Of a DNA stretch of 64,000 bases, positions 10,241 through 64,000 are shown one piece after another (the stretch's first letter is position 1; each line of letters starts with the position of its first letter). Source of the stretch: Haplodiscus bocki. Its lineage: Eukaryota. The position numbers and the translations under genes were made by a program. The notes below the pieces were generated by a model. It was not told where the DNA came from. It searched no databases and saw nothing but the letters and a program-made list of their open reading frames with translations. The stretch spans positions 22,568,001 through 22,632,000 of the forward strand of contig OZ296656.1 in assembly GCA_965655095.1 (NCBI GenBank). Direction: 5' to 3'.

Positions 10241-10249
10241 ACAATTGCT

Positions 10250-27312: not shown

Positions 27313-27394
27313 ACGTTTCGCGCATTACCTAATCACTTTCATATTTAATATTTCAAAAATAAGTTGTCCATACAAAGTCTTCATTTTGATCGAA

Positions 27395-28066: not shown

Positions 28067-28620
28067 ACTGGAAACTCAACAAACATTAAATTTTGTACAT
28101 AGTATTGCGTCCATGTAAATGATACGCAACGCCCACGTGTCCGTTCTGAAATTTTGTTCATATGAACGATTTGTAGTGTCTACCTATCGTTGCTTACTTT
28201 TATCTTCACGTAACTGAGAAGTATGGTATACGTGAAACTCTGGTGTACTGATCCAGACTGGGACGGAACCTTTACGGAAAAAACGGATTTTTACATATTT
28301 TCTTAATTGCAAATATATATTAAAAAAGGGCGCTAAATTCAAAATCACTTGTGTACTTTTTAGTACACACCTACATTTTCAACAACCAGAACGGTGATTC
28401 AAATTGTATTTGAGAATGTCAATAAGTTTGCTGTAGCTATGACTTCGAACGTAGAGCTTGACTTTAAAAGTGAATTTTTGTTCCGTTCGCGTTCCGTCGC
28501 TATCAATCTGGTGACCTCACCAGAATTCAATCCAATCCACTGTCCTACTATACAGTGTAAATTTGGCCAAACACGCAGCGGTTCCGCATCCACTCGATAC
28601 ATTCTTCTAATTAGCACTGG
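27988..28620 (+). repeat. 3' LTR of copy A (truncated)
   Basis: Direct repeat of 16135-16770; similarity stops abruptly near 28620. Confidence 0.85.
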
Positions 28621-32000: not shown

Positions 32001-34960
32001 ACATTATTACTGGCAAATTCAAATAGACTGCAGGCCTCACTTTTGCACAAGTCGGAGAAATTACGCCATCTGGACAAATAGGTCTACTTGTGGACTTACA
32101 GAAACTCAGTTTAACCTCAGTTGCCTTTCAATTTGCCGGCTGGTTTTTTGCAGACAGGAAATTTGCACAAAGCCTCAGTAGCGTCGTGCCTGCACTTTCA
32201 AGCGTGATGTTTTTATACTTGATCCCAGCTGTCAAGGCTAAACAATGTACGTTACTCTTTGTGGTTGATAACGAATTAGCAGGCAATACAGGAAGATTTC
32301 GAGTGCTTTCACGAAGCAGACTCAGAACTGACAAAGTTCAGCGAAGTTTAATTTAATGGTAGGGCCATTTCACCGTACCAAAAGACACTGCAGTCTCACA
32401 AAACTGATTTTTTTCCCAACAGAGGGAGATTCCACAAACAACAATATGATTTGCTCCTTTATCTGGATTTAGTTAATTTTTCACAAAAATTACATTTCCA
32501 GAAAAGTGTAGAAACTCAACTCATTATCAATTTTCTGAAAGCTGAGACTCCTATCATTATAATAACTGAAATCCAACAAACATTCGAATAAGTGAACAAA
32601 GCATTCAATGGTGCTTGCAAAGTGGCCATGAAAAAACCACTTCTTGGTAACCAACTCGTCCTCTTAAATAATGCAAGGTTCAAAAGTGCCGTTATGCCCT
32701 CATGGTTGATGATAACTAAGAATGAAAATGCGGTCAAAACAAAAACATTGGACCAAGTCGCTTTTGGATCAGAAATCCAGTTTCTTGTTCAACTGAAAAT
32801 GTCAATATACTCGAAGGTGTTCTTGGCTGTAGACAAGATTTTTCTCGAGTTGGCACATATTTTGTGGGATGCCGCAAACCAAGAATTGTCCTGACAGATG
32901 AAAAATATCTCACACAAATCTTCCAGACAAAAGCAAGTCGACCAACGCTGGAGAACGCGTGTGATATTGTATTGAATGTCAAATTGAGAAAAGCGCTTCT
33001 CGCAGGTTCAATCGTTACAGCGCTGTACAACAGTGTTCAATTTCACTGACAAAGTCTGGATCTGAAGTTCGGGTGAACATACTCAGTCACCTAAAAGAGT
33101 TGACACCGTTTTTTTCTCAAAAGTTGCTGAAAAAGAGTACTTTCTCTTCACACAAGAAGACAACAGATTTGAGAATTAGGAACAAGTTTCCAAAAAGGAA
33201 CAAAAACCTTGAAAGAAAACGGCAGACTGTATAGCAAAAGAAGAACTATGCTCATTGAAAACATTTATAAGGGGACTTGGGAAGATCAACGAAACCTTAC
33301 ATCAAAAGACACAAGGCAATTGCATGAAAAGTCATCGGTCTGATGAATACGACAGTGACACTGAAAATGATCAAGTAACCATTTAATAAAGTGTTACTAA
33401 AAGTGAATAAGAGTTAAATAAACTAAAGGGTAAATGGGAAGCGCAACAACCTGACATGTAACCTACTGCACCTAAAATACTACGAGAACAAGGGAAGGTC
33501 AACCTCTGTCGAATCCTGTTACCAAAACAATTTGTTAACCAAGTGCTACACAACGTACACAGACAACTTATAAAGTATCCTGGAATCGTTAAGCCCATAA
33601 GGTAGACAAAACTATGGTTCAAATATGGCATTACTAATCATTTGGCGGGGAAACTCAGCTGAGCAAAAGGTCAGACAATCCTGACTTGATAATAGATTCA
33701 TGGAGTATCCTAGCGAATATGTTAGAGGACCAGAAAACGCCACAAATATAAGGTTTTTTTTGGAGTTTCCTCCACTCGTGATTACAGAGACATTGCTACA
33801 GTCAGGGACATATTCCCTGGGGGCTTGTTCGCCTATCCAACCACAAACCAAGTGGCTAAACTATTGCCATAATCATAAATAACTTTATGACCCAGCAACT
33901 CATTGCCGACAACAGTCATCTCCGTAAGAGGATCGTTGTTTTCTGTCACAACCTATCAAAGAAGCGGCAGACTTTTTATGAATTTTTTCGGAACAGACAT
34001 GGCCTCACATGGATTGTCAATGGAATGACTTTAAAGATAATATTCCTCATTAAAGAAGGCGATAAGTAGCAAAACGGACGAACCAAATTCAACTTGGCAC
34101 CTGTATATCAATCAACATTAGAGTGCTCAACTATATGAAGTCCTACTACCCACGCATAGAACTCGAGCTCCGTCAAACGCACCACGGAAGCCGTCGTAAC
34201 GAAGTCGAAGACTTAAAAGTTGACTTTCACCCAAGAAACATCCAAAACCGAACTTGCCAAATGCTAGAGTTGTTCTTGAACAGAGAGAAGAAATTTACGG
34301 AAATTCTCGCTAAAACACTAAACAGACCCACATCAGGTATATATTGTACTGCTATAAGAAATTTTGTACGTCATACAGCTGCAGGAAGATCATCTAAGAA
34401 TAAAAACTCTTTCATAAAATTCCGCTGTGTTGAACCATACAACCTCGCAAAAACTTCACGAAAAAAAAATTATTTGGCCCCGAAGATCGGAATGAACAAA
34501 ACTCGAGTACTTTATCACATACGAAAACGTCCGTTAATACCCATGGGTCCCAAAAAATGGTTTTACAAAAAACATCTTAAAGGTGGAAGCAGAGCCCCGC
34601 AGGGACTAAGGCGCCACGAGACACCCTCACCTCGATTGTGTTTGGAAATCTGACATGAAAACAGTTTTCGAGGTTAATCAAGTTGAGCTTAACCTCCTTT
34701 GTCATGTGAAGTAGACAGCTGTCAGATGTGACAAAACGACTGAAGATGCCAGTAGTAAACGAAGCAATATGCCAGAAAGCCGCCCAGAACGTTTTCCTCG
34801 AACAGACGGGATATTCGACGCAACGGATACGGATCAAGATAAAAGATGACAACGGACACGAATTTGGAGCGTCATGAACGTATTTCCTTTTTCCCCTTCA
34901 TTGAAAAGTACGGTCTGCGTCAGAGCCTGAAATCCAATTGCAACGACAATTAGATATATT
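29049..34960 (+). pseudogene. heavily decayed gag-pol of copy C
   Basis: Remnants collinear with copy A: PTLRNNMSLAAVNR, TSSGKQKK, VAFGSEIQFLVQLKMSIYSK, terminal KYGLRQSLKSNCND. Confidence 0.8.
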
Positions 34961-35249
34961 AGTTTCTCAGTATTTCATATTTTTTTCCTGGTTTTCCCTA
35001 GTAAAATAAAAGAATCGCTTAGGTATACTCACTGGGTTTTTCCTGAAGTCTTTCTGCAGATTCTTTACTGATAATTTGCCCGTTTCTCAAGGGAACCTGA
35101 AGCTACATATTGGTTGTAGACTAATTGACTTGCTACTCTCTCCCATCACGTCAAAAAGACTATTCCCATGATTAATCCACACTAAAAATACAAATTTTTA
35201 GTTTGCAGTTAAAGATGTACAGGAAGGCGTAGTTCAACTTTAGTTGAAA

Positions 35250-38200
35250 AATCTGCATCTTACCACATTCCTAGATTGGAAGTCTGGGTGACTGCTGGTT
35301 TAAAAGGGCCTTGAAGCTTGGGTCATCAAAACAAGAAAACCATTTTCGAGGAATGAAGGAAAGGCTCTAATTCGAGCTTTTCTTGTTATTGAAGGGACTA
35401 GCAGAAGGAGCCTTCTTTTCTATTTTGTCGGTAACGTTTCGACTTTTACTAAATTAGTGGAGTCCGAGCTCATGTTCATCGATGAACACTTAGTGTGTAC
35501 GTTCTTCCTCAACTACATCAAGAATCTATTTTAGTGATCTTGTGACTGGCTCCGACACAACAGAAGACTCTTTGCTTGCAACACTGTACCACAGCTGTTC
35601 TTTGTATCTAGCCATTGGTTGAAGAAAAACATAGCGTTGTTCACCCAAGCACGAAAATCAGGTTAACCTCAGGCAATGAATCCGTCCCAACAAGCCCGCG
35701 ACGATCAAAAACTACACTGGTGGTGATGATGTTGGTCATGGCAAACCTACATCGAGTCGGAAGACAATTTCTGTCGGGTGAAAAGAGGACTCTTGGGCCC
35801 GGACAATTGGCTCACGCACTACCAAGGCTGTCTACCGAAAGTACTGAAACAAAAAAGTACTCACTTTCTCTTACAATGTTTAACCCTTCTCGCCCTTCTC
35901 ATGTAGGATATATTACATACGTTGTACAAATGACGCCGAGCGGGGAAACCAACCTGTGAAGATTGGAAGGACGGGATAATCTCTACATTTATATGATTCC
36001 TGTCAAAACCTCACAATTGTCTCTCCTGCATGAATGACGGGGAATTGCCTTAGGATTCTTGGATCTCAGAGCCATTGATACAACCTCTATCCGTCAACCC
36101 TTCTTTCGAGACCCCAAAAAATGAAATGGAGCTTAATTGCGGCCCCCAATCAGAGTTGCGAGGCAGACACAGCTTAGCCCCTGGCCCATCAAAAGTCTTG
36201 CAGCGACAGCAGAGAGTACACAGTTCGTAAAATTCTAATGAAATCTTAGAGCATCTTACCAACGTTTTGTTTTCAAGTAGCAACTCCCGATTTTGTTGCG
36301 AACTATCAAACGACGTGTCCCGACGATAATTTGCTCTCTCGAGTTACAGGGTACTTGGAGTAGTTGGAGAACTTGTACTCCTCTGACTCCTTACTAAGGC
36401 GGAAGGAATAGCATGTCCCTGTCCTGTGGAGAAGGCAGCAAGTGAACCGGCAAGGTTCACCATAGGCAAAACAGCCATAATTAGTGCTTAAAAACTGCTG
36501 TAGAAGGAAGTTGTCGTAAAATGAAACTGAACAAAACTTTTTTACCAGACAGTGAACGTGGAATTTATCCCAAAGAATCCTAATTACAACCTTCCCACAT
36601 TTATTTAGCAACAAACTGGGAACAAGAATAGTGAGTTCCTTGATTCTTGCTGCAGATAATCGGAACAGTTACGTCAGAAAAAATGGAAATATTATAATCT
36701 TATGTAATACAATATTGAGCATGAAGACAAAGTTCTGCAAGCATGCAAAGAGACGAATGGTCATGCGCTCCATCTGGTAAACGTGGAAATACCCTTCCAA
36801 ACTCTTTCTCGAATCAACAGAAGCAAAAACTGCTACAAAAAGACAAAGGCAGTAAAATTGGAACCGTGAAGTAGACTATACCCTTAGATTGTCGCTGTCG
36901 CCTTTTTCCGACTTTCTTCTTCGGGTACAAGGCAATCAAGTGCCGAACCCCGAATTTATTCTCAACCAGTTTGATGAGGCTTGATCTTGAGAGATCATCC
37001 GTCACTACAGTTCTCCGGATGACGGGGTGGGAAAGCATCCAATCCAAATGTTCGGTTCTTTCAGCCTAGTGGGAACAAATTTGGCCTCCAAGAATCGATC
37101 AAAACTCCCGAAACACCCTTGAGGTAGACAGTGCTTGAAAAGGCCCATGTTATAGGTCGTGTAGTCAATTGGGTTTCGCTTGTACCGGCTGCGGATGTAA
37201 CTACTAACCGAGTCTTCAAAAATATGGAAGCCACCACAGAGGGTGAAAGCAGAAACATTACTATCAATGACTTCTACAAATCGTTCGAGAATTGCAGTCA
37301 TTTGCTGGGGATCGCCACTCCAACGGTTGAGGACCGCCACACAATATCTTCCAAACTCAGTCTTCTTCCATGTGCTTACCAAAACCCAGAACTTTCCGAG
37401 GTGCTCCTAAAAATTTGTGCGACCGGAGCTGTAAGCTTTAGCCCAACACCTGACTTAGGAAAGGATGCTTGGTACATCCTGCTTAGAATAGTGGATTTCA
37501 CGAAATCTTGTGAGGCTCATGGGTGAAAACAAACGCATATTCATTCGGCAAATTGGGCAGCAAAATTGATTGAACGTCTCGATTGCATCAGTTGAAACAT
37601 ATGCAAAGAATCGACAACATCATACGACTCAGAAAGTTGTCCCCGTTTTGTAGTTTGCCTAAGTCTCGTCACGGATCGTGTCGAAAGTTTCCATCGGAAG
37701 AGGAGCTGGCCGTGATGGCCTTTGGTCCAGTCCGCTAAGCACTTCATAAAACTCGGTGAGCAAAGAAAAAAACGTACAACAGATACGAGTAAATACTTGT
37801 AAATTGAGGAGAAGACATTAACTACTCTTGATGGGGCCCATAGTCTGCATTGTGTCTTCTTCGCAGACTGAGCTAAAACGATTGATGAGATAGTTACCAG
37901 TCGCGTGAACTGTTGCACTGGCAGAATTGACAGCAAGATGGTCTGCTCAGAAAACCCGGACCTGAGGAGCCAACATGGAACGATACTAGTATTGTACTCA
38001 CTTGGAACAAACCATATCGTCGTCGAATTTTTTTTTCAAAAGGTCGAGACTGCAATCACGTGTACAGTGCAAAACGGAGCTGATGCGCTATGGGTTGAAA
38101 GGACTAGCTGAAGGGTGATCATAACGTCTTTTCTATTTGTGTGAATGTAGGCCTCTACCGCGCCCTTGAATAGTCACCAGCCCTGGAATAAGCTCAGACC

Positions 38201-49349: not shown

Positions 49350-50823
49350 TTCATTCGAATAAGTTAATTCAGGGTCAAGCATGTTCTGAGCTCTACTGTT
49401 TCTAGTACATTCAGGTGTTTCTCCCGAAACTGCTGCTAGTTTCCTCTTATTTCTTAAAGTTGCCATGAGAATGAGGGAAAAGTTTTATCAGTTATGAAGA
49501 CTGAATTTGAGCTTTATTTTTGTAATGAAAGTGATTATATCCTCTTGTTATGAGGGAAAAGAGTCTCCAAAGAAATACAACAGTCAAAAGTGCGAACAGT
49601 TCAATATTCAGTACAATACTCAAAGGCGACAATGTATCTATTAATAACAAAACTTTATTTGTCCTATTTATACCTTTCCTTGGCGGGAAACATAATTGGT
49701 TACACGCCAAATTAAGGTACAAATAGGGAAAAGTACTTTAATCATATTATTTATCAAAGAGAAAGATGCCGACTCTGGCGGAAAATAAACACCCTTCCGT
49801 CCATTTCTTCCTTCACGGATCACGTCTTTTCCATCTTTCGACGGAAAAAGTACGGGTCCGATCTGTCGGAAATGGACATCAAAGTGGTTATTCCCGCGAC
49901 GTAACAATAAATAATGACAAAAACAAAAAATCAAATAAATTTCCATACAAGGAAAATACTAAAGTACAGTAGAAAAACAATTTAAAGTATGGAAAAATAT
50001 TGTTTATATATACTAGACAAGTTCATGTTTACATCTTGCGTCAATTAAGTCTACTGTTGGGAACAAACTAGGCTTTTTCATAGTACGTTCCACGTTTCTA
50101 CCAGCTCACGCCTCACTTTGACCGGAGCGTTCCGTGGAGACTACGTAGCCGCTTGTAGCACTGCTCTCCGCAGTGCTATTGAGGAGAATGATTCTGGTGG
50201 CTACGTAGACGTCCCGTGTCCGTCCAAAGTGAAACAGCGTAGTAGCACAGCGGATTGGCTGAAATTCGTGTGACGTCACCAGATTAGCTACGACGGAACA
50301 CATACGGAACAATTATTCACTTTTAAAGTCAAGCTCTGTTCTAAGAGTTAAACTATTGAAACTTGTTAAACCTGTCAGTCTAAGCAAAATTACTGCACAG
50401 GTTAAAAGGTGGATTTTTATAATAATTAGCTAGATCAATTAAATTAAATAGAACCTGATATTATTATAAAAATACAGTGAATAATCGTTTGCTCCGTATG
50501 TGTTCCGTCCCAAAAGGATCAGTTCACCAGAATTACACGTATCGGATACGTGCTTTTTACATGAAATCAACCTTGTGGGACGATACTTAACTACTACGTA
50601 TCGTCTACTTGAATTACTTGTGTGAATACTAGGTGGATACGTACCTACTACGTATCCTAAATATAAATTATTGAATACATGATGGGTTAAGTGAAAACAT
50701 AAGCTTTATTAGTTCGTAACTGAGTTTGAATGTCTTTAAAGTTCTAATTCTTGTGTGATGGACTTGGGATGTCCTTTGCTGATGGGATCGTCTGACCGCA
50801 GGCTTCGAAGATGTGCCGCGACA
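49350..50823 (-). repeat. 3' LTR of copy B (end truncated) with gag start MATLRNKRKLAAV at 49466
   Basis: Minus strand reads AAAAGAAGGGGGAG|TGTCGCGGCAC; matches the 5' LTR of copy A through the gag ATG. Confidence 0.82.
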
Positions 50824-51410
50824 CTCCCCCTTCTTTTGGAAAGGACATTCCCCGGCTCAATTTCCTTTTTTGTTTTCGGGGTGGTGACGGCGGCGATGAA
50901 ACGCTGGAAGAAAATAGATTCTCCAGGGCTCGTAACTTGAATAAAACCTGTCGTCGTCGGTCGTCGTGAAAGACGTCTCGCAGTTGTTGAAGGCCCTTAA
51001 ATTCATAGGAGGCGTCAATATTGGGGACGGTTCTGACGGCTCCGGTGACTGCGGGCTATAAATGTCATCATTGGCATCCGCAGTAAGGTTTGCGACCACC
51101 ATTGTTGCCAAGATGTTAAATGGGTTGGCGGAAAGTTCAAGTCGTTCAGGCTCGGCGGGACGATTGGGAGCTGCCGTCCAAATCCATATGGCATTGTTGG
51201 ATGGTTAGAGTCATTAATAATAGTAAAGATTTGAGATTTGAGGGATGCGATAGAGGTAATTGAGGGCATCCCTGTCGTATGATGTTCCGATAGTTCCGTC
51301 GAGTTCAGGATATTCGGAGAGTTGTTTTGTTGCACACTAGGCTCGTTGGAGATTTGTTCCACATGGAACACATCGGAATCCATCGAATTAATCGAAATAT
51401 TGGATGACAT
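50744..51410 (-). pseudogene. accessory ORF Y (copy B, frameshifted)
   Basis: ORFs 51015-51410 and 50857-51111 join into an S/P/N-rich protein ending FPKEGGVSRH...PSPSHKN*. Confidence 0.65.
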
Positions 51411-51417
51411 GCTGAAT

Positions 51418-51696
51418 TTAGAGAGAAAATCGAATAAGTTTCGTGATTGAACAGCTGAATTGGAAAAGTGGAAAAGAAAGAGTGATCGGTATTGCGGGTA
51501 ATGATACTTCGTTGTTATGGAGCGGGATTTCCTTTGATGTTCCCGCGCCGCTGATCAGCATCACTGAAGGTAGGAAGTAAAAAGTGCAGTTCCAATTGAT
51601 GAGATGTAAACAAATCTCAAAAATAAAGTCTCTAAATTTGAGGAACACTTGAGTATTGTTCCTCAATGTGTCCTTGAAAATACAGGCTGACGTCAT
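51418..51696 (-). CDS. small accessory ORF Z (92 aa)
   Basis: Open ORF, homolog of 27121-27312; its stop lies 7 nt before the ORF Y ATG. Confidence 0.55.
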   Translation of the reverse strand: MTSACIFKDTLRNNTQVFLKFRDFIFEICLHLINWNCTFYFLPSVMLISGAGTSKEIPLHNNEVSLPAIPITLSFPLFQFSCSITKLIRFSL

Positions 51697-51809
51697 TGCT
51701 GGCAGACAAATTAATCAGACTTTGATTAAAAAAATTACGAATTTTTTGAATAAATATGTAAATCCACCATGTAATAGCTCATTAACCATATCGTTCATTA
51801 TTGCAAATA

Positions 51810-54675
51810 ATGAGTGCAACTGAGGAAGAGGTCGGGATAACATCCCCCTTTGGCGGGAGTGTCGCCACTGACGAGCAAGAGCTGGCAATTGACGAGGGTG
51901 TTCGTGAGAGCAATGCAGTCCCCACTTTGCAGTTTGTCCCCGATTTGGATGTGGTCGTCATGGAGGGAGAAAAATGCGTGAGTAGAGGGTTGGTGGAAGT
52001 CGAAGCAAGTGATAGTCGGACTGAAGAAGCCAGTGAAGGAGATAGTTTTCTGGACATCATGGGCGGTTTGGAAAAAGAGACGGGAGGTGAATCTGAAGGA
52101 TTCACGCTTGAAGACATTCTTCGACATGCAGATTTACTGTCAGAGACTGTACTGGAGGCTGTTGTCGATACTCTTGATTTGCCAATGTGTTAGTCCTCAT
52201 TCTTCATATTCCTTTAGCTTTTCTTTTGAGGAGTAATATGGTGGCCATCCATATTCTCCATAATCTAGTATTCAGCGCGCGACTCTTCATGAAGATGGCA
52301 CCATGGGGCTTTGTGTTTTAGTATTTGATTCTTCCGGAGAGCTTGTTAATGGCCCTGAGGAGACGGTGTGTGGTGTTCCGTGTAGTTCCAGAACCGAGTT
52401 TGTGATGGGGCGCTCTACATCCAAAGAGGAGGCTTTTGGCACTTCGACAGGTGCTCCCATGGAAATTCCGTCAAGTTTTAGCATCAGTGTGTTCTGTTTT
52501 GGCAAATTAGGGATCATCTGATTTCGTTTCCCTTTTCCAGGTGCAGCTAGTGATGGTCCTTGTTTCTCCAGGGCTGGTGATGTATCGACTGAAACTGAAG
52601 TGAGGCACAAGAGGAAACGAAGGCAAGCCGTCATCACACGCCGCCTTGTGCCTTTATCGGGTCAGGAGCCAAGCCCAGTTGAATTTGGAAGTCGGGAGCG
52701 GAGCAGAGAATTGTTGGAGCAGGCATTTGACGATGCTAATGGTGAATTCAAAATGAGGATACTTTAGGTGTGGTTCCTTGTGGGTTCCTCATTTCTTTGA
52801 ATTGTTTAGACCATATTCCCGTTGACCCTGCAATTGCTCCAATCAATGCCACCGGACATCAATTGGTGACACTGTGCCGCTCAATTTGTGCTGAAGAAAG
52901 AGCACAAATTTTGGATCGGCTCATGTGGAGTAAGTATATTACTACGTATTTCATGGCTTTCGTTGTCTTCCTCTTTTCACTTTATTTCCTGTTCACAGAA
53001 TTAGATGCCGATCTCCAGCATTTGGGACATGGTTCTGCACCCTTGAGTCCACATGCTGCTGACACAAGTGACAGCAGTGCAGACGAGTTAGAAGCAAGTC
53101 CTCCCCGTCGACGTGTGAGGTCAAAGTGCACATTCAAAATGAAGAAGGTGTGGGGAGCAGATGAAGTCGGTCGGTTCTTCGTCACTGGGGCTACAGATGC
53201 AACTGGCAAACCTAGCCACATCTACTGTCGCATTTGCCGCAAAGACGTTTCAGTTCTGACCCACGGCCCACATGAAGTCCTGAGACACTTCCAAGGTGTC
53301 AAGCATTTCGCCCGTGACCAGCGATTGATACGGGAGACACCTGGTTGGCGGGTACTGGACTTTGAAGGAAACCCCCTTAGTGAGAGTGAGCTGGAGCGTC
53401 GCAGGGAGTTCATTCTTCGAGGTCCTCTAGTCATTGGCGATCGGGAGCATCCCTTTGCTGAGGATCTGATTGTGGATGATTCTTGAGCTCCGAATGCCAA
53501 ATTATCAATCCTTGCTAAGGTGTCGTCGCTGGTTTAAGTGTTGCGATTGGGTGGGTCCTACGAGCTTGTCCATCAAATGTGGTCGCAATTTACATTGACT
53601 GCCAGCCGAGTGAACATAGACGTAACATGGTCTTGGGATGAGGTGTTGGTTGATATTTTCCGTTTTATCTGTCTGCGTATCCATGTCCACTGGCTTATTG
53701 ATGTTGTGTTTTAGTCGATCATTTTGAACGGGATGTACTCCTGTATCCTTTCTCGCGTGTTTGGTTGGTTGAAGGCGTATGGGCACTGCAGCATTGAATT
53801 TGAGGAGCGCGGATCAGAAATTTGGGTGCTGGTGCTGACATGGGAAAGGTTCACTTTTCGACGTGTTTGTGTGGCGGTGTTGAGCCGATTGAGCGCCAAT
53901 ACTACCCTGGAGGCTACAATCTTGGCAAAATTTCTTGATGCTACTGGTCCCGATACATCTGTTGTGTCTCTGCATGGGGGCCATTTGTGTTGGCAGAGGC
54001 TTCTGCAAGCTATCTGGGAAGTAGATACGGTGCGAAACTCGTGGAATACCCCCCATTTGATCTCCGGCTATTGAATCGTTGCCTCCAGCGAACTGCTGCA
54101 TCCTTGTTTGGGAGCCTAGACCCATTCTCCATGACAGAGTTCGTGGTCAATCGTCTGAAGGGTGCAGAGACTCGGGACTGGATGGCGTCTCGTCCTGCAT
54201 AGCCCAAAGCCATCATCACCAACGATCTCTCCATGCCTGGCCTTGTTGATGTGGTGGCAAACATTGTTGGGGTAAGGCCACTGGTGGCGTTGTACTTGAA
54301 GGAGTCTGGCCGCAAAGACGATGGAGATAGTCTTGTGGTAAGGTCTTCCGCTGTGGGTGTATTGTCTGCATAATGTAAATGTGCTCATCACTTATTTGCT
54401 GTTTTTAGAAAAAGGGGATGGACGGGTATCTGTACCACGATCAGCTTGCTCGCGTGAAGTTCCGGCTGTTCCATCTTCTTATGGAAACCTGTAAGTATGA
54501 TCATCACATCCCGAATATGATTCATGTTGGTACGTAGTGGATCCGGATCAGTTCCTTGAAAATTTCTAGGAACGCACTAGTACCGTTCCATGATGGTTCC
54601 ACGTTTTACTTTTGGGTGGAATTCTGCATCATAGCAACGCATGGGTGATGCTAGTGGTAAGAGTGTGAGCTGATC
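51810..54675 (+). pseudogene. antisense (relative to element) spliced cargo gene: acidic N-terminus, zinc finger, hAT-transposase-like core
   Basis: ATG 51810; YCRICRKDVSVLTHGPHEVLRHFQGVKH; candidate GT-AG introns 52768-52809, 52930-52998, 53649-53714 and 54338-54408; a few stops; truncated by the Polinton. Confidence 0.8.
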
Positions 54676-55260
54676 AGGGGGGGGGGGTAAAACCTCCATG
54701 TATTAAGATAGGTTATAGCGAGCCGAGAGGAGCCGAGAGCCGAGAAGGGTCTACCACCCGAGCCGAGAGCGTTTGGGTTTTTTTCGGCACTGTGATACTC
54801 AATTCTGATTGGCTGACGACAAGAAATTGCTTTTTGGGCTAATTTTGATTTTTTTCTAATTGTAATATGAAAGGGTTTAGTTTCGGCCGTGGGTTCGTCA
54901 AGGTATTAAGATAGGGTATAGATTCGGCAATGTATTAAGATAGAGTATAGGTTCGTCAATGTATTAAGATAGGTTCGTCAATGTATTAAGATAGGACGGC
55001 AATGTGGTAAGATGTTGTAATGTATAAAGAATGGTTCCCGCAGTGTATTAAGATATGGAATAGGGTATTTTAGGAACTCTGCGACAATTTTCGGCACTGT
55101 GAGATTTTTCGAGAAAAAAATCTCGAATTTTTTGCCCACATGCGCCCGCCCGGGATAATTATTCCGCCGCCGGATAATTATTAAGCCGCCAGATAATTTT
55201 GCCTCCGCCGGATATTTTCCCCCAAGTAGTATAGTATGAGCATAAGTAGGGGGGGGGGGG
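54676..55260. repeat. putative Polinton terminal region with short repeats
   Basis: G11 and G12 runs; about 6 copies of gtattaagata; agccgag x4; ggataattatt-type repeats; tttcggcactgtga twice. Confidence 0.65.
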
Positions 55261-55278
55261 AGACGAGGTCTCCTACGG

Positions 55279-55338
55279 GGATTCGAACCTGCGCGGATGG
55301 AGTGCCGGACACCATAACTTTTTGTTGCGATTGAGCTA
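55279..55338 (-). promoter_or_regulatory. RNA polymerase III type-2 promoter-like A box and B box
   Basis: Minus strand TAGCTCAATCG (55338-55328) then GGTTCGAATCC (55289-55279), in tRNA-like order and spacing; no cloverleaf. Confidence 0.45.
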
Positions 55339-55439
55339 TTTAAAAATATTGTGGTAAAGTTTTGAAAAGTTGTTTAAAATGTATAAAGTTGAACACATAC
55401 ATTGTATAAATGGCACATTTATAGTAAATTGGTAATCAA

Positions 55440-55835
55440 TTACACGAAATTACTTATAAAAGAGAGTACATTGATATCATGAACACCAGTTGTCTCCTCT
55501 TGTTGAAACTTGAACAAATGAAATGCTGCATAAATTGTGTAGAAACCGCATACACTGGGATGATCTTGTAGTCTTGTCCGAACCATTTCACTGTAATTCT
55601 GCTTTAGAAAAGGGTAATTGTTGATGGATAGACCAAGATAGTCGGCAAAATACTTTTCATGATGAAACTTTGCAATCATTATTCAATGCTCTCCTGGCGT
55701 GTTGCTAGGCTGTGTTAATAATCGGAAACGTGTCATTCCGGAGGTTTGGAACAAAGTCTGAGGGAATGATCCCATTTACTGATACTTGAACAAAGGTATA
55801 CAGTTAACGATTTGTTTGAGGGAAGTGTTGTCCAT
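55440..55835 (-). pseudogene. adenain-like cysteine protease
   Basis: SNTPGEH*IMIA (H-W motif with W changed to TGA), YFADYLG and LQDHPSVCGFY. Confidence 0.88.
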
Positions 55836-57175
55836 CTCGAAGATTCTCTCCCACAACAACAAACTTGTCGACTGCAGCACAAGACATACGTTCACCCAAT
55901 ACAATAACTTCTGTAACATTTTCAAGAGGCGAACTAAAGTATAGCTTCAATCTCAATGGTTCTCCAATTAATTCCGGATAGTGACAGTGTTCAGTAGCAT
56001 CTTGCATTGAAGTCAGATCAAACACTAGTACGTAATGGTCTTTGAAATTATCAACTGGAATTGATGGAAGATCATCTTGGAAGTTCATCGCTGTCATTGT
56101 TGTGAGATACAAGCGACAATTATCTGCCGTATCGTGGTATACAAATGGATGTCCTCCTCTGAGTTTTCTAATATCTCTCAGATTAAACTCTTGATACCAG
56201 AATGGGTTCTCAGCAAAGGAACCAGTAAAGAAAGAGTTTGAATTCATTGCAATGGCTATTCGACGTATAGTGCGTTGTTGAATATTTTTTCTTGAATGAA
56301 TTGGTTCTGTCGTGCAGGAATGATAAAAGTCTTTGCCAACGTCTCCATGTAGTTGTATTCAACTGGAGCATGAGCTAGTTGAGACATTCTTTCTTTGTGA
56401 TAGTCTTCTTTGAGCATCACGCGCCGAGTGTACAGAGAACAGTCCACAATACCCAAGCTAACATTTGGATTCTCGCTAATCATGTAGAAATTTGGTCGCG
56501 CTCGAATTAGGCTGATTCGAATTTTCATATTTGGATAAAGTTATTCCGAAGTTGTAAAAAAATCGATGGCCAGCTTACCGTACATGAAACCGTCAGGTCT
56601 ACTGTACAATTTCATTCATCTAGTGAGAAATGGTCCTTCTAGGAAATTCTCTGGATCTTCTTCATAGTCATACCCTTCACAATGCAAGACTCCCTTGTAA
56701 TCTGACAAGGTACTTTTGAAACGGTTAGATTTGTGAGATTTGTGAGCATAAAGTCCATTCGAATTGTAGATTTGGTGATAGTTAATGTACAATTCTGCAT
56801 TAGAAAAAATGGAATGCAGAATATTGTTCACATGGGTAATGTGAGGCACTCCCTCGTCCTCTTCTATAAATCTAACGTCATCGTCAACTTTTTCAGTAAA
56901 AACAGTGCCTTCTTTCTACTCCTTTTTCTTTTCTGTTGTTTTGTAATTATCAAAACCACGTCCTTTAAATTTTAGAGCAAGATATGTTTGTCGCAAATCC
57001 ACGTAAACGTTGCGCTCTGTTTGAAATTCAAACTCAATACTGTTTTCATCAAAAAATGTAGTGGGATAAATTTGTTTTTCGTGAGAAGACAACACATTGT
57101 CCACAACTGGGACTTTCATACCAGGATTCCCAGAAACTGCAACAAAAGGTTGATACCGAAAATTAATTAGATCTG
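55804..57175 (-). pseudogene. double-jelly-roll major capsid protein
   Basis: SIEFEF..VDLRQTYLALK, NNILHSIFS, FTGSFAENPFWYQ, VFDLTS and LRLKLYFSSPL across four ORF fragments. Confidence 0.9.
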
Positions 57176-57181
57176 TGATTA

Positions 57182-57534
57182 TTAATTTGCAATTTCAGTA
57201 AAAGTGTCTCCGCGTGAGCAACTGCTTCGCTTCAATTTTTTGACTGGAATGCTTGTCGTTTGATTGCCACCTCCAAGTTGTTTTCTCAATGTCTGTCTTC
57301 CTATGCTTTTGGCAGCAGTTTTGAAATTTTTTTTCCGCTGATAACATGAGCTACCTCTGGCACTGCAAACTCCAACAAATCAGCACACATGCGTTTTGAA
57401 GCTGGGACGATATATTTTCTCAAGAAAGGAATGGCGGTTCCCCCAATGACTTGCGCAAGAGCCCCAAAACTACGTCCTCTTTGACGTCCAATACTTTTGT
57501 AGTAAGGAAGTTAAAGAGTGTTTGATGCAACCAT
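57182..57534 (-). pseudogene. small basic Gly-rich core-like protein
   Basis: Manual translation MVASNTL*LPYYKSIGRQRGRSFGALAQVIGGTAIPFLRKYIVP...LRKQLGGG; lies between mCP and MCP; absent from the ORF track. Confidence 0.65.
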
Positions 57535-57548
57535 TGTACACACTAATT

Positions 57549-58354
57549 TTAATACAAATGAATGTCAGAAACTTTTCTAAACATGAGAACAAGTTGTGTT
57601 ATTCCCACCAAGACAAAGGGAATCTTTTCACCAGACGTGTCTCGCAAATCAGTGTGTATGCCGTGAAAAGAGTTTTTCACAATCGTCTAAACTGAACATT
57701 GCTAAAAGTCTGATAGTTCACGTTTTGTCCAGTAGTTATTATGTCACCAGATTTGAGCTTGGATATGAATAGAAAGCAACGGAGCAAAGGCTCCTTTTTG
57801 TCTCCAACAATATTATACTCTACATTGTCAGTATACATCATGAGTGAACGGATGCGAACAATAACGTAAGCGAAAGTTGGTTCTTGCGGTCCTTTCCCAC
57901 ACAGGAGTATTCCCAAACAATTACCCATGTCTGCTCCAAACATAGGTTCCAGGTCAGTACTAAGAACCGCTAGACTCGAATCTTTATTCGCCAGATACAC
58001 CTCTACTTTTTGCGTTACCCTGCTATCTTTGATTGTAATGCAAGTGTCTCTGTGGTTGTTTCGTTCTTGTATGAGAGTTTTCATAGCTTCCACAATGTCA
58101 GTTATGGAGGAATACAGACCGGTTTCAAGGTAGTAAGCCTCTGTTGTTTTGGAGAGTTTCTCATCGTAAAAGACGAATTTCCCCTCTGTAATGTTTTGGT
58201 ACATTGATGGAAAACAAATCTCGGAAATTGCTACCTCCCATTGTCCGTCCAAATTCACTTGCTCCGGCAAGAAATTTTTAAATGAACTGAGTGTTTTGTT
58301 TGGAAAGGGCTGTGATGATGCGTTGAAAACCAACTCGATTGTAAATAAATCCAT
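57549..58354 (-). pseudogene. minor capsid (penton-like) protein
   Basis: FTIELVFNAS..FPNKTLSSFKNFLPEQVNLDGQWEVAISEI and MYTDNVEYNIVGDKKEPLLR. Confidence 0.88.
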
Positions 58355-58356
58355 AC

Positions 58357-59270
58357 TCAAATGACTCTAATTAGTTCCTTCTCGTAGGATTTCCCGCGTA
58401 TAACTTCTTCTTTTTCGTCTTTGATATTATATGTTGGAGGCTTTTTGGTAGCAATGGCAACAATTTCGAAAATTTCTTGTGTAAATTGTGGTTTTTAACA
58501 TTTCCTAAACGGTAAATCATACTTGGAAATGCGAACTCTGTTTCCAATTCCAAATTTGGGCTTCTTGTATTCTCTGAGTGGTTTACTGTAAAGTATGGAC
58601 ATAAAGTCAGAGTTCTTGAAGTGGTTGGGTTTCATGTCTCTGCTACGAATGTTTCTAGAATTCATTGTTGCAAGAAATTGAGGTAACTAATGATTATACT
58701 TGTATCCATAATCCTCCATGTTGCGATAGAAAATGTTTTTGAGTGAGCGTATTGTACGTTCTGCGAATGCTGATTTCGTCTCACTCATTGTAGAGTAAAT
58801 TTCTATTTCTTCAGCGCTGCAAAATTTCTTGAATTCTCCCGCAGATTCTGTCCCCTGATCTAGCCAATTGTTTTGGTCTCTTCTTTTTGGTAATCATTTT
58901 TGAAAATGTCGTGACAGTTTCCTTCCTGTCTTTTGTCTTCATTCCCTCTGCATCTACGGTTCTGTCAAACAAGTCTTGGCGAACTAGTAAATACTTTACA
59001 CCATTATTGTCTTTTGACAATTTATCCACATATGCTAGATCCAGACACCAAATTTCATTTTTGAATCTCGCAAAGGCTCTCATTCTTTTGAATTTACGTG
59101 TTGCTTGTGTGAACCTAGTATATGAAGTCTTTGACTGTAAAAACTCTCTGACCTTTGACGGAGAGAGTTTCGCTGCTATTGCCAATTTGCGCACAGAACT
59201 ATATGCTGCAAATCCTTGCGTGTAAAGTCTCTGCAACTTTTAACGTTCAGATTTTGAAAGGGATCCAAGC
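58357..59270 (-). pseudogene. Polinton retroviral-like (rve) integrase
   Basis: VREFLQSKTSYT, IWCLDL, DQGTE, AERTIRSLK, FGIGNRVRISK and YEKELIRVI*; frameshifted. Confidence 0.92.
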
Positions 59271-59657
59271 TCCTCGTTCTTTACCCAGGCATGACTGTTG
59301 ACAACAATGACGGGAGTGATGCTAGCCGCGTCAAGTAAGGTAAAGTAAATATCGGGTACGGGTACGTTTTTTGCGCTTCAAACGCTGTGCAAAGTCCTTC
59401 AACAGCACACCAGTCTCTATTCCATCCAGAATCAAAGTGTTGGAATTTGATAGCTTGATGCGAGGAGTTTCTAAAATTTTGTTTACTGGAGGGGAAGCAC
59501 TGGTATTTAGCTGTTGGCTAATTTCCTTTTTTAACGTACCTTTGTGGTACATGGGAAATTGCTCAAGTTTGTATTGGGGTAGTTCTTTTTTTGTTATAAT
59601 GATTGGGTTGTTGCTGCTGTTGTAGACAGAAAGAGGTATTAGAACAAACTGATCCAT
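59250..59657 (-). pseudogene. uncharacterised Polinton-type protein (MDQFVLIP...GAWIPFKI*)
   Basis: ORF 59331-59681 plus a frameshifted tail; tightly packed between neighbouring genes. Confidence 0.55.
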
Positions 59658-59659
59658 CT

Positions 59660-59961
59660 CAAGACAAATGATTAATGACAAATGGGGAAATTGTTTTTAT
59701 GAGCAATAATCGTTTTTGCGACGGAAGTGGACTTCTTCGTTGCTTCCAAGTTGTTCATTTTAAAGACAGTTCGTGAATTTCGTCTCTGTACTTTAGGACG
59801 TGACTTTTTTTTACTTCTGACAAATTTCCTTGCAGCATGTTGACGATGTATTCGCTGAGAAATCGGATAAATTCTTTCGGACAAGTTTTTACAAACTGAA
59901 TTTTGCATGCGAGTGAAATGTGCTGGAAGGCTTGGAGAGTAGAGAGATTTAGTGTCTTCAT
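59660..59961 (-). pseudogene. small Polinton-type protein (E..VN.LQGNL motif)
   Basis: FIRFLSEYIVNMLQGNL...LKYRDEIHELSLK; overlaps the ATPase tail in another frame. Confidence 0.55.
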
Positions 59962-60616
59962 CGTCCAAATAATTCAAATGCTTCAAGTTGTCGGGTACAT
60001 AAAATTTTTATGGAATTTTTCCGCTCGTTGTGCAGTAGCGTAAACGATCGTCTGTTCGCGGAGACAAACCAATCAGCAAATGACCAAAAGGTACAGATGT
60101 TGCATCCCGATACCAGTCAACGAGAGCTGATCCAAGTCCCAATTGTACACTTAATGTAGCAACTTGATGCACATCTCGAGGTGACTTGAAAAGAACAATG
60201 TGTGTGTTTTGCAGCTCAACATCCCTTCCTAGCTTACTTTGTTTGAATAAGTTGTGTTTAATGTATATAGTACTGAATCCGCGATATCTGCCAGCGGTAG
60301 CAATGTCCAAAATTTCCTCGGAGATGCAAATTTCTGCACATGAGTCATCAAAAATGAGCAGATACTTGGTACCGTTATTTTTCAAAGAATTGATAAATTC
60401 AAAGTGTACACCTTGAACAAACTCAAGACTATCAATTTCTTTTTGCATAACATCATAGAGTGGTTGAGGGTGTTGATAGAAAAAATAGATTTTGTCAAAC
60501 TTGGGTTGAAATGTTCCAACTTTCAACCACTCATGTATCAAGTACGTTTTGCCAGAATCGCTGGGTCCAACGAAAGTTGTAAAAGTGCGGTTTTTTGTAG
60601 AAAATAACTTGTTCAT
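59900..60616 (-). pseudogene. A32/FtsK-type genome-packaging ATPase
   Basis: Walker A VGPSDSGKT, Walker B LLIFDD, GRYRGFSTIYIKHNLF and HIVLFKSPRD; frameshift near 60010. Confidence 0.93.
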
Positions 60617-60873
60617 AACTTTGGTGAAGTCAAAATATATTCTGCTGCACTGCACAAGATTCCTACCCAAACTGTAGATTCGTCACAAGTCTTGCCCAAA
60701 TGTATACGCCAAAAGCAACCGCAAATAATCAAAAGTATTACATCAAATTGTGACAAAAAATCAATTGAAGACCTAAAACAGGTTTGTCCTAAACAATACC
60801 ACAATCTCCTTTCAACGTTTTGGTCGTCAAAGACAAAGTTATCCAAATTGATATTATCAGTGTGATCAGGCAT
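60613..60873 (-). CDS. small hypothetical Polinton protein
   Basis: 86-aa ORF whose TGA overlaps the ATPase ATG (ATGA). Confidence 0.5.
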   Translation of the reverse strand: MPDHTDNINLDNFVFDDQNVERRLWYCLGQTCFRSSIDFLSQFDVILLIICGCFWRIHLGKTCDESTVWVGILCSAAEYILTSPKL

Positions 60874-60982
60874 CTAGTTTTGGACGCTCAAAATTCTTAG
60901 AATGAATGCTATAGAAAAAATAATTTCGAGTTGAAAGAATTAAATTAGTAGTAAACACAAATACAATACACACGTTCGGAAG

Positions 60983-61440
60983 TTACATTTCTAAAGGTTG
61001 CATAGCCCAGTCTTCATACACTTTTGTTTTCCTCTCGGCACAGTGAAGCCTTGTTTTGTGTCGCAAAGGGTAATTAGAGCAGATCCACGAACTGTTCGAT
61101 TTTTCTTCTCAGATCTTGAATTTTTGGGCAACCATATTCATCCAACTTCTCTACCTTTTGTCCGACAAGTCTCGTTGACAGTCTACACTTTTCGAACCCT
61201 TTAGCAAACAGTTCTGCATTCATCAATTTTATGTTGTAAAAGACAGCAAACAGCTTCTCATATTCCAGCTTTCCACTACTCCACGCAATTCCATGTAGAT
61301 GACTTGTGTTCCATGCTGTCCGTTTATTAGTTCTGAAAGTCTTAAAAGTCTCTTAGTTTTAAAAGTGGACAAAATGAAAATCCTTGTAGAGAACCATCAA
61401 TAAAAAGTCCCAGATCTTTAATTATGTTTTTCTCAGTTAG
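60983..61440 (-). pseudogene. DnaQ/DEDD-exonuclease-like Polinton protein
   Basis: IIKDLGLF..FSFCP, WNTSHLHGIAWSSGKLEY, FAKG.EKC, YGCPKIQDL and HCAERK; N-terminal DxE not present. Confidence 0.55.
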
Positions 61441-61837
61441 TCGATTAAATTGAAAATGGAGGGTAAAAAGATTTTTACGTAAAGACAAAATAATAGTCCA
61501 GTCACGTGACCAAGCAAACAACAGTTGGACCTCGACCAATCTTGTAGCAGTAGCCGGGTCCTTTACGGGTTTGTAATCGAACTGCTCCAGCAGCATTGTG
61601 TAATATTGCATGCAGTCTGAAAACTTTGGTGTAGCGAAATACAGAGTCCAAGTACGAGACTCCATAACCAATGAGTCCACCAAATTCAAATTTTTGGTCC
61701 ATCTCACGTAGAGAAAGTCTAGAATCTCAACAGAAACATGCATTTAGAAATAGGTTTTTGCGAACACTGTTGTGTTCAAATGATATTTTAAATCCCGGGT
61801 ACAATCGGAAAATGCTCATGGGGAAAAGAACATCCAT
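61437..61837 (-). pseudogene. phospholipase A2-like protein
   Basis: GGLIGYGVSYLDSVF...RLHAILHNAAG resembles a GxG loop plus an HD dyad (here HN); followed by GPGYCY and a hydrophobic tail. Confidence 0.4.
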
Positions 61838-61854
61838 TCTTGATGAAATTTACT

Positions 61855-62037
61855 TTAATTATGAACAGTTGTTTCATCCAATACAATGCACTGCTTAAAG
61901 AATACCTCAATGCAACTCAAAAGATATACTCGTTCAGATAAGAGTTTTTCGTATTCAGTCATTTTCAGCTCCATTTCAGTGTCTTTGACGTATGTTTTGT
62001 TTCGGTAGCGGTAAACTACATTATTCAACTTGTCCAT
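61855..62037 (-). CDS. small hypothetical Polinton protein fragment
   Basis: MDKLNNVVYRYRNKTYVKDTEMELKMTEYEKLL; co-oriented in the gene array. Confidence 0.35.
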   Translation of the reverse strand: MDKLNNVVYRYRNKTYVKDTEMELKMTEYEKLLSERVYLLSCIEVFFKQCIVLDETTVHN

Positions 62038-62329
62038 ATCAGTCTTGAAACCTATGCGTACTTTTCTCCTACCATTGTATATTGTCCATTTTACATAAGA
62101 AATTTATTTCTTGGAACCCACTTTTTCAATTTAAGACAACTGTTGCATTTTAACTAAGGTTAGGGTATTTTTTTCGAGGGAAGTTTTGGGTTTTGTTAGT
62201 ACAACATGATAAAGTCCAAATTTTGATTTCAATTTGAGACATAGGTTTCTGTTCTCTCCAATGTTCCAAATCATTCTGACTCCAACGGAAAGAAAAAGAT
62301 AGTAAAGAGTAAAAAGTTGCAATTACTTG

Positions 62330-62903
62330 TTACATAACATTGCAAAGAGGTTCGTTAGCAATAACTCATTTACAGAAATCATTACATCAAATAAATAAAT
62401 AAATTCATCATGTTTATAGTTCACTTAAACAATTTGATTGAATTTTTTTCGTCTTTTCTTCTTCCAAACAATCGAACTTGAACGTATGAAGTCTCTGGCT
62501 TCTCCACATTGTAGCGCAGCATAGTCACTCAAATATTTCTGTGTGGTCGATCAACAACTTTTGCAACTTTGTGTGTAAGTTTGAGCTGCTCTTCCTTGTC
62601 TCTTGCTAGTAGTTTCACTAGCACAGGGGGCAGATTTTCCTCTTTGTTGAAGTCTCTGACTGCAACAACTAGCTGATTTTTCAGTCGAATAAACTGATTA
62701 AAGTCTGCCTCTCCCATTGTCAAATTTCGTGCCAGTCGAAATTGTTTGTTCTCGTCCCTCTTGAACAATTTGAGTTTCACGTGCAAGTAGTCGAAAGAGT
62801 TTTTGGACCAAGAAATTTGTCCAAATCTGTCTTGACATTTGCCAAAGTTCACATAGTCGCTGCAAGCCAGTTTGTCCAAGGTTGCTGTAGTGTTGTAGGT
62901 CAT
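62330..62903 (-). pseudogene. tandem PC4-like ssDNA-binding protein
   Basis: Two similar units: YLHVKLKLFKRDENKQFRLARNLTMGEADFNQF and YVQVRLFGRRKDEKKFNQIV*VNYKHDEF. Confidence 0.5.
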
Positions 62904-63371
62904 TTAAGATTCAATTTTGTTGTTTGGAGAAGTGAGAAGAAGAAAAACAACTTCATTCTAGAGAAAAGAGTGAAATAATGAATATTGGAGATAAACAAAC
63001 TGGTATTTATAGTCAATCTGATAAGGCATGATTTCCTTTTATGGGATTTTTTCCATATATGGAATATTCCGACCATTTCAGTCGATTGTGCATGCAAGGG
63101 AGCGACAGCAGTAGGGAGCCGTAGGCGTGGGACATTTCTATATATGTATGTAGTTTCCATATTAGATAATAGTCTTCGTAATTCAAAAATTTCGCGTTTT
63201 GAGATTCATTTTGTCAATTTTTACCGCAGCATTCATATGGCAGCCCCTATGTTACAAACAAAACCCAGCTTTCCGGAAAAATTTCAGAAAAAAGTCTCTT
63301 TGTTTCTGCAATAATATATGAAAAAAAATTGCCTGTAAAGACTACTGCATCGCCCATCACTTCGATAAAAC

Positions 63372-63731
63372 GTGTTTTTACCCGCTTGTAAATATCACAT
63401 TATATTACCTGGAGAAATTGAGGAATTGCTACATAACTTGGATAAATTTTGTTTCATCTATCAACAGGTGGACTGTCTTTTTACCCTAATCAAGTACCGC
63501 TTCAATGGAAAAATTAATGCGAAGAGTGGAAATGTGTTTGACAATGTGCACAGAGCAATCTCCTTTAACCAAAGAAACAGAGGAGTGGACAAAATGCCGA
63601 GTATTGCAAAAAAGAGGCTCTTGAGAAAAAAGTTTAAACAACATTTTATGAGTGCTCTCCAAAAAGAACAAATCAACGCAGACCAGTGGTTCAGTGTTTG
63701 CAGAAAGAGTTGGAAAAGCCAAAATGACTAA
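63372..63731 (+). CDS. hypothetical protein, first ORF of a divergently oriented arm
   Basis: 119-aa open frame after a ~470-bp intergenic region; no recognised motif. Confidence 0.35.
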   Translation: MFLPACKYHIILPGEIEELLHNLDKFCFIYQQVDCLFTLIKYRFNGKINAKSGNVFDNVHRAISFNQRNRGVDKMPSIAKKRLLRKKFKQHFMSALQKEQINADQWFSVCRKSWKSQND

Positions 63732-64000
63732 ATTTGAATTGGAACTAATAAAAATCGTAGATTGTTTTCTTGATGGTCATGGTAGTTATGATAGTAATTT
63801 AGTAACTTTTAAAATAAAATCTTTATAACAAACAATATTTTTTGTTACAGTTAGTAAGAGTAATGAGTGTTCCCAACGAAAACAAATTAATTGTTACAAA
63901 TGAGGTTCCAAATTAAAAAGTTTGAATTCTTGTCAGATTTTAAAACAAAATTTTCACAATATGTCAGATTTCAAATCAAAAATTTTACAAAGTGTCAGAT

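Follow-up and report, generated by a model that had tools for sequence, protein, structure and literature searches.

A gene antisense to gag-pol with a predicted transposase-like fold in a Ty3/Gypsy retrotransposon lineage of Haplodiscus bocki

A stretch of 64,000 nucleotides of the Haplodiscus bocki genome (positions 22,568,001 to 22,632,000 of contig OZ296656.1, assembly GCA_965655095.1; G000:C9:22568001-22632000, hereafter called the window) holds three copies, A, B and C, of a Ty3/Gypsy retrotransposon lineage, which carries a large gene antisense to gag-pol and tail to tail with the integrase. This locus raises the question of whether the gene is an inherited part of the element, where it came from and what its product may do. 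A first-pass annotation of the window had proposed that it is inherited and derives from a hAT-type DNA transposase. We analyzed the window in detail and extended the searches across the 1.5-Gb assembly, in which Wnt genes are present, as fits an animal host. The explanation we prefer, which taken as a whole has about an even chance of being right, is that a transposase gene was captured in antisense orientation and now serves the element as its own regulator.

The same antisense gene was found in all three copies, as previously suggested. The exons of a young copy find their matches, in unchanged order, in copy B (51810-54489, plus strand), copy A (26970-24012, minus strand) and copy C (37940-35921, minus strand), and in A and C pol is on the opposite strand (in A, reverse transcriptase, RNase H and integrase occupy 20485-23574). 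The motifs quoted by the first-pass annotation are present on the plus strand in the order CRICRKDVSVLTHGPHEVLRHFQGVKH (about 53227-53307), SYELVHQMW, WSWDEVL / SIILNGMY (the two parts of which flank an intron), GHCSIEFEE and VLVLTW. The proposed location is between the integrase and the polypurine tract (PPT), but copy B has no integrase within the window, since a Polinton-like insertion starts at 54653. Copy B continues at C9:22640510 with the remaining gene exons, gag-pol and its 5' LTR (long terminal repeat), which is 91% identical to the 3' LTR over 930 bp. When copy C was compared with a young copy, the gene exons were 26-49% and pol 24-45% identical. Since exons 4-8 of copy C are still in order despite this divergence of pol, the arrangement must be old. 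Of 38 further loci in the assembly, a few of them already included in our set of 20 family-B elements, 37 have the integrase end on the opposite strand at a distance of 287-536 bp from where the match to the last exon stops. The tail-to-tail layout was also seen in one tested copy of a young family that is 47% identical. Copies were sampled via the gene, and these counts cover gene-bearing relatives.

Read from the young copy L138, the antisense gene comprises about 1,190 codons in nine predicted exons and measures about 4.3 kb. The first-pass annotation had caught the gene and its orientation, but the extent it gave (51810-54675) falls short of this, and it had missed the full exon-intron structure, the split by the Polinton-like insertion and a second open reading frame (ORF). 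In copy B, exons 8-9 are located beyond the insertion and outside the window (Table 1). Reading frames were tested by copy-against-copy comparison of the ratio of non-synonymous to synonymous differences per site (pN/pS) in all six frames. Here, we found that each of the nine exons has one plus-strand frame with the lowest pN/pS (0.08-0.37, with exon 2 at the higher value given in Table 1), and that stops in this frame do not exceed 0.3 per young copy.

Table 1. Features of the window (positions refer to the window; exons and introns are predicted)
Feature	Position	Strand	Remarks
Copy A	16133..28619	+	5' LTR from about 16133; pol up to 23574; truncated 3' LTR matched at 28030-28618
Copy C	32108..37940	+	pol 32108-34551 (+); antisense gene exons 4-8 at 37940-35921 (-)
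3' LTR of copy B	49362..50823	-	family LTR about 1.76 kb; 1.46 kb of match here
Second accessory ORF	50740..51410	-	sense to gag-pol; about 220 codons; broken in copy B
PPT AAAAGAAGGGGGAG	50824..50837	-	immediately precedes LTR start TGTC
Conserved spacer	51411..51809		separates two divergent ATGs, about 400 bp apart
Exon 1	51810..52186	+	ATG at 51810; pN/pS 0.25-0.37; 0.2 stops per young copy
Exon 2	52269..52469	+	weakest constraint, pN/pS 0.58-0.68; copy B frameshift near 52409
Exon 3	52541..52735	+	donor altered in copy B
Exon 4	52810..52929	+	present in copies A and C too
Exon 5	52999..53648	+	BED-like finger C-x2-C-x16-H-x5-H followed by helices; copy B has two stops
Exon 6	53715..54337	+	RNase H-like core and start of helical insertion; without catalytic Asp; copy B frameshift near 53980
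Exon 7	54409..54490	+	27 codons; most constrained, pN/pS 0.08-0.17
Intron 7, first part	54491..54652	+	ends in 6-bp target duplication GATGCT (54647-54652)
Polinton-like insertion	54653..64000, past window end		about 17.9 kb; inverted ends of about 800 bp, 80% identical; AGT(A/G)GT termini

All seven clear introns are GT-AG introns of 67-76 nt, apart from one of 206 nt, and their length modulo 3 equals the frame shift between the adjacent exons. From one subfamily to another, the modal length of an intron changes by numbers not divisible by three (e.g. 72/72/74, 67/67/66 and 69/69/73) while the exon frames hold, and these data provide independent support for splicing. The GT and AG dinucleotides are conserved in 41-45 of 45 cases, for which kinship partly accounts. 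It weighs against this interpretation that the frame test was made on junctions already chosen by eye and that one donor was selected from two candidates, so that the agreement of seven in seven introns is not fully independent. In four runs, all contigs and of unrecorded kind, no joint at the predicted introns was seen among the best 15 of 102 joints, a result that is uninformative on expression. From the pattern of sequence evolution, we infer that the gene is spliced to a frame of about 1,190 codons. An additional exon within intron 7 was considered and rejected, as no frame was constrained in both six-frame comparisons. The predicted intron 1 (52187-52268; 2531-2609 in L138), with its donor at 52187 or 52193, holds a conserved in-frame stop and is 82-95% conserved between subfamilies, which is above the flanking exons; it may be regulatory or alternatively spliced.

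Selection on the gene was quantified over 1,182 codons as the ratio of non-synonymous to synonymous substitution rates (dN/dS), a check that the first-pass annotation had called for. Between subfamilies, pairwise values of 0.13, 0.15 and 0.19 were obtained (140, 252 and 45 pairs). For exons 6-8, dN/dS was 0.01-0.14. Within subfamilies the ratio was 0.39-0.46, as expected because neutral decay after insertion adds to it. In seven of the 17 younger copies, the model frames are free of stops. Pairwise distances of the gene and of pol were correlated (Spearman 0.74, 36 copies, 0 of 2,000 permutations), and most subclades are common to the two trees; L001, L007 and L127 did not enter this comparison, nor did two rearranged pol regions and any copy for which pol was not fetched. 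The two phylogenies thus largely agree, but L124 and L129 group with different subfamilies in the gene and pol trees. This counts against strict co-descent and suggests recombination between subfamilies. Among the five longest inverted pairs in each of four copies, none flanks the gene, a search in which short or decayed terminal inverted repeats (TIRs) or a target site duplication were not separately excluded. The antisense gene is an inherited part of the Gypsy element and not a chance insertion: it is kept at a fixed position and is under purifying selection on its spliced antisense frame.

These results bear on the simplest alternative, according to which the gene is a nested DNA transposon or a functionless hitch-hiking passenger. 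hAT families, some with long open frames, are present in the genome and nested insertions are common, copy B being an example. However, the low dN/dS between subfamilies, the identical position in 37 of 38 loci, the lack of flanking inverted repeats in the four copies searched and the exon order maintained in copy C all speak against a passenger. Selection, fixed position and six-frame constraint refute its functionless form, and we consider the probability of this alternative to be close to nil.

What kind of protein does the gene encode? An AlphaFold model of its core, calculated for a sequence that retains one natural in-frame intron, had an average predicted local distance difference test score (pLDDT) of 56, with values of mostly 60-86 across the core itself. 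The model shows strands at 217-225, 228-237 and 240-250, a helix, a strand at 275-280, another helix and then helices only. Residues 200-302 align with an integrase, with ISCth4 and with other RNase H-like folds (Z 5-7.4), and an RNase H fold is predicted for the protein. The Cys, Cys, His and His of the upstream finger are kept in 91, 92, 85 and 80% of the aligned rows. This region, modelled with low pLDDT, gave weak matches to C2H2 families of Pfam and not to zf-BED. The N-terminus of the protein is acidic and its C-terminal tail basic. In copy L138, Asp and Glu account for 23% and Lys and Arg for 6% of exon 1. The acidic N-terminus noted by the first-pass annotation applies to copy B and the nearer subfamilies, but exon 1 gave no tblastn match in A or C.

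Several observations point to a hAT-type ancestor. In Foldseek, Hermes occupied ranks 1-6 (best E-value 1.6e-3, probability 0.87, about 350 columns, TM-scores 0.15-0.21), and the alignment spans the helices that follow the core. In the Atlas, ten of ten rows shown were hAT-type, DUF659 or DUF4371 clusters at 0.84-0.89, which is a lead only since one third of shuffled proteins also yield ten concordant matches. An intact hAT of this genome (L174) has an N-terminal CxxC-H-x5-H finger with similar spacing, and the ETRDW motif of the antisense gene resembles the near-invariant TRW of the hAT alignment. Other results weigh against this ancestry. No Foldseek row reached an E-value of 0.001, the TM-scores were 0.13-0.21 and the overall pLDDT of the model was low. 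In VIA-align, where Z-scores under 8 may reflect a common arrangement, ISCth4 ranked first (Z 7.4), followed by ribosomal and kinase folds, and Hermes was absent from both top 50 lists. Pfam searches, as well as phmmer and hmmsearch against PDB sequences, returned no hAT match. With hmmsearch against hATs the best score was 2.9 bits, compared with 3.9 bits for shuffled sequences, and hhalign gave probabilities of at most 1.4% for 11 templates, the same as for reversed controls. These profile comparisons involved one DUF4371-type profile, which the gene protein did not match, and four single hAT sequences. The resemblance to the ZNF862-type subgroup named by the first-pass annotation is a putative one. 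None of the best 150 of 1,532 relatives from the representative search (E-value up to 0.001) carries a hAT family of Pfam, and these best 150 yielded no free-living donor. For the C-terminal half (model pLDDT 44), neither a usable structural match nor a usable Atlas match nor a PF05699 match was obtained. In summary, the proposed hAT ancestry is favoured by the structural comparison and finds no counterpart in the profile searches; we regard it as likely, though unproven.

The same anatomy could also go back to a DDE family other than hAT whose members have a helical insertion (such as a Mutator/IS256-like one), or to an unrelated host protein with RNase H fold. For such an ancestor speak the ISCth4 rows at the top of VIA-align (rmsd 3.4, 94 residues aligned), the missing profile link to hAT and the spacing between the expected CxxH position and ETRDW, which is about 40 residues here versus about 55-65 in the hATs of this genome. 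The Hermes ranks in Foldseek, which extend over the length from finger to insertion, the Atlas rows, all of which belong to a hAT-type family or clan, and the similarly spaced finger of L174 are more difficult to reconcile with it, and we judge this origin to be unlikely. Independent of this question, long single frames of 623-652 amino acids are found in several hAT families of the genome (L174-L176, L170), one of which has many equal-scoring copies and is probably recent.

Regardless of its ancestor, the protein has very probably lost transposase catalysis. At the end of strand 1, where the model, inspected by eye, would place the first catalytic Asp, a Glu is found, in line with what the first-pass annotation had read. 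At the second Asp position, assigned in the same way, 89% of the rows have Gly. The CxxH position reads YPxFD, and an ERxFS-like motif was not found in the alignment. One might argue that enzymatic activity persists with a changed chemistry, for instance in a nuclease acting on cDNA ends with Glu in place of the first Asp. Consistent with this, strand 1 most commonly ends in the pair Glu-Glu/Asp (64% and 73% of rows), but the predominant Gly and the two absent motifs argue against such an enzyme, which we consider quite improbable.

The antisense gene is not the only accessory gene of the element. The second ORF lies between the ATG of the antisense gene and the PPT, head to head with the antisense gene, and ends just within the 3' LTR. 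It is rich in Ser, Thr and Pro, carries a basic PPPRKLKRK patch, has few stops and a pairwise dN/dS of 0.11-0.13 (with dS near saturation), which places it under purifying selection, and gave no match to a Pfam family. The encoded protein appears disordered; counterparts are located at 430-1395 in L009 and 970-1698 in L138. The spacer between the two start codons is among the best conserved parts of the element (51521-51777 is 72% identical to 27039-27296 of copy A), and it is a candidate bidirectional promoter.

Motifs with an ACGT core are clustered in two parts of the element, at 300-1050 and 6600-7050 in L138 and, in the window, at 50070-50824 (the U3 part of the LTR). In L138, ACGT occurs 14 times in U3 (3.3 expected) and 8 times at the integrase end (2.2 expected); the cluster was significant in three of four U3 slices, and the flanks of the motif vary by subfamily (TACGTGCC versus TACGTATC types). 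These clusters are candidate sites for the antisense-gene protein, with host bZIP/bHLH factors being equally possible readers. Against a specific link to the protein it must be said that the clusters were noticed post hoc, that the U3 slice of L130 was not significant (5 versus 3.1), that the cluster is weak at the integrase end of copy A and that it includes the conserved GACGTCAC, which resembles a cAMP response element and could be read by host factors.

Considering its parts together (finger, acidic end, basic tail, no catalysis), a role of the protein as regulator appears somewhat more probable than its absence. The main functional rival is an integration-targeting or tethering factor that binds host DNA or chromatin together with the integrase. 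The strong selection on the folded scaffold beyond the finger, seen in the dN/dS of exons 6-8, would fit such a factor, as a bare activator would not need this scaffold, and so would the co-descent of the gene with pol. On the other hand, an informal look at the eight insertion sites printed revealed no apparent common flanking sequence, and the acidic N-terminus and the motif clusters within the element would better fit transcriptional action. A targeting function is unlikely in our opinion, slightly more so than a different DDE ancestor.

The regulator explanation can be formulated as follows. Long ago, a Ty3/Gypsy lineage would have captured a DDE-transposase gene, most likely of hAT type, in reverse orientation between integrase and PPT. 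The capture would have been a DNA insertion or a read-through into a host gene lying in antisense. Its introns would persist through reverse transcription because the gene is antisense: on the genomic RNA, which carries the complement, GT-AG are not splice signals. Five long hAT frames from this genome are single frames of 588-652 amino acids without introns, and the introns would therefore stem from another donor or from later gain. Transcription would probably start from an internal promoter common to the antisense gene and the head-to-head sense ORF, and the transcript would be spliced to about 1,190 codons. The product would have retained the BED-like finger, the RNase H scaffold and the helical insertion and would have lost the catalytic triad. 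Most likely, it would reside in the nucleus, bind DNA in a sequence-specific manner and act in trans on the element that encodes it, by activation or anti-silencing; the ACGT-core clusters of U3 and of the integrase end would be its candidate target sites. In its most far-reaching form, a hAT transposase would have been domesticated by a class I element as its own sequence-specific activator or anti-silencing factor, would co-evolve with the LTR motif clusters and would aid the very high copy number. This version remains doubtful.

The element itself is a Ty3/Gypsy retrotransposon since pol is arranged in the order reverse transcriptase, RNase H and integrase (RVT_1, RT_RNaseH, Integrase_H2C2 and rve of Pfam in L136). 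The whole element measures about 15 kb. One-piece LTR pairs of 1.6-2.0 kb (88.7-98.7% identity) were found in 13 of the 20 family-B copies, and the integrase end is at the expected distance in 19 of them, the remaining copy being internally deleted. The LTRs have TGTC...CACA termini, and TGGTGACAG is located immediately downstream of the 5' LTR as primer binding site (PBS). A 5-bp target duplication is clear in four of the eight copies printed, has one mismatch in two and is unresolved in two. The unit CCCTCACATGGTGACAGG, which combines LTR end and PBS, appears repeated just 3' of the 5' LTR in several copies (L031-L045). The lineage is very abundant: in protein searches of the genome, three divergent C-terminal queries listed 150, 87 and 63 places, which implies at least hundreds of copies. 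The copy B stretch gave 43 DNA matches with 80-100% identity (40 scored of 3,732 candidates), and the protein searches had 6,277-9,921 first-look candidates, figures that do not equal copy numbers. One divergent subfamily is very young, with at least 18 copies that are 98-100% identical over about 490 codons (e.g. C9:34274636, C4:33415530).

Copy B is decayed: exon 5 contains two stops, exons 2 and 6 are frameshifted, and the donor after exon 3 is altered. The nested insertion in its intron 7 is bordered by a 6-bp near-duplication (GATGCT / GATGGT), and because the insertion begins at 54653, the match to B ends by 54658 in each of the other 29 copies fetched. Its size and ends fit a Polinton. 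The inverted ends carry TGTATTAAGATAGG repeats, and the minus strand has ATPase-like (GPSDSGKT) and integrase-like frames, labelled by eye. Elsewhere in the window, positions 1-3060 (minus strand) hold another gag-pol remnant, 64-65% identical to copy A, the 3' region of which is beyond the window. Complex tandem repeat arrays at 6333-11563, 14641-15723 and 39048-40663 have units common to all three, with short units of about 31 bp and longer ones of about 340-360 bp.

Among known systems, the arrangement most closely resembles the antisense ORFs between pol and the 3' LTR (aORF-3R) that, according to the text available to us from two papers, occur in plant Grande, RIRE2, Retand and PvRetro13 and in fungal Boty (PMC7264820, PMC11963269). 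The same sources state that the origin of these ORFs is unknown, that a regulatory DNA-binding role has been proposed, that gene23 of Grande has a promoter of its own upstream and that its product is nuclear, and that the Retand aORF carries a domain named transposase 28 (PMC7264820, PMC11963269). As in those elements, a conserved antisense gene is located between pol and the 3' LTR of a Gypsy element in most copies. In contrast, the host is an animal here and the gene has about 1,190 codons and about eight introns, whereas the word intron does not occur in the Retand text at hand. It has a predicted transposase-like fold, while an origin of aORFs from inserted transposable elements is presented without similarity support in the parts of the review consulted, and it is paired with a divergent sense ORF. 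TRP28 (PF04195) was not matched by the antisense gene in Pfam.

With hAT transposases (Hermes; PDB 8sjd, 8edg, 2bw3, 4d1q) the protein shares the top Foldseek ranks and a predicted RNase H core, and its BED-like finger, helical region and putative helical insertion may correspond to theirs. It differs from them in that no DDE triad, CxxH, hAT domain of Pfam or TIRs were found, in that introns are predicted and in about 340 additional N-terminal and about 120 additional C-terminal residues. CGGBP and ZBED are host-domesticated, hAT-derived finger proteins with sequence-specific DNA binding, often intron-bearing and missed by Pfam, and as far as the available text goes they provide a precedent for hAT DNA-binding proteins in which catalysis is dispensable (PMC8097297). 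Those proteins are mostly short and were domesticated by the host, whereas here the whole scaffold is carried inside a retrotransposon.

VANDALs are plant DNA transposons. In the part of the literature seen, their VANC is described as an element-encoded accessory anti-silencing protein with short repeated target motifs that differ between related elements (PMC5735166). The likeness to the antisense gene is a functional analogy without any claim of homology, and anti-silencing is a hypothesis here. Animal Gypsy-like elements with accessory genes include the bdelloid elements with ORF3 (PMC5408684) and planarian Burro (PMC6431247), and the accessory cargo described in the accessible text comprises env-like, exonuclease, esterase or apoptosis domains (PMC5408684, PMC6431247). 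The words transposase and intron do not occur in the bdelloid text available, nor do antisense and hAT in that of the giant transposon review. Compared with an env-like ORF, the large gene is antisense here, and the small sense ORF is rich in Ser, Thr and Pro and without Pfam match. In a literature search that covered mainly open-access text, with most subscription papers, Repbase and supplements outside its scope, we found no report of an animal Gypsy element with an antisense, intron-rich, transposase-like gene. The arrangement is real and unusual; we class it as a variant of the antisense accessory ORFs and not with the hAT transposons.

How the antisense accessory ORFs of LTR retrotransposons arose and what they do are described as open questions in the text consulted (PMC7264820). 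For their origin, the present case offers a probable answer, namely a captured DNA-transposase gene, and it indicates that an antisense orientation allows a retroelement to hold a long gene with many introns. With young, near-identical (98-100%) and old subfamilies side by side, the lineage lends itself to studies of expression, of DNA binding and of joint evolution with the LTR motifs. Should the domestication of a transposase as activator or anti-silencing factor prove true, the protein would correspond to VANC in an LTR element of an animal and would illustrate a route by which antisense accessory genes arise. If it counters silencing or targets integration, it would represent a new mechanism in the interaction of animal hosts with their transposons.

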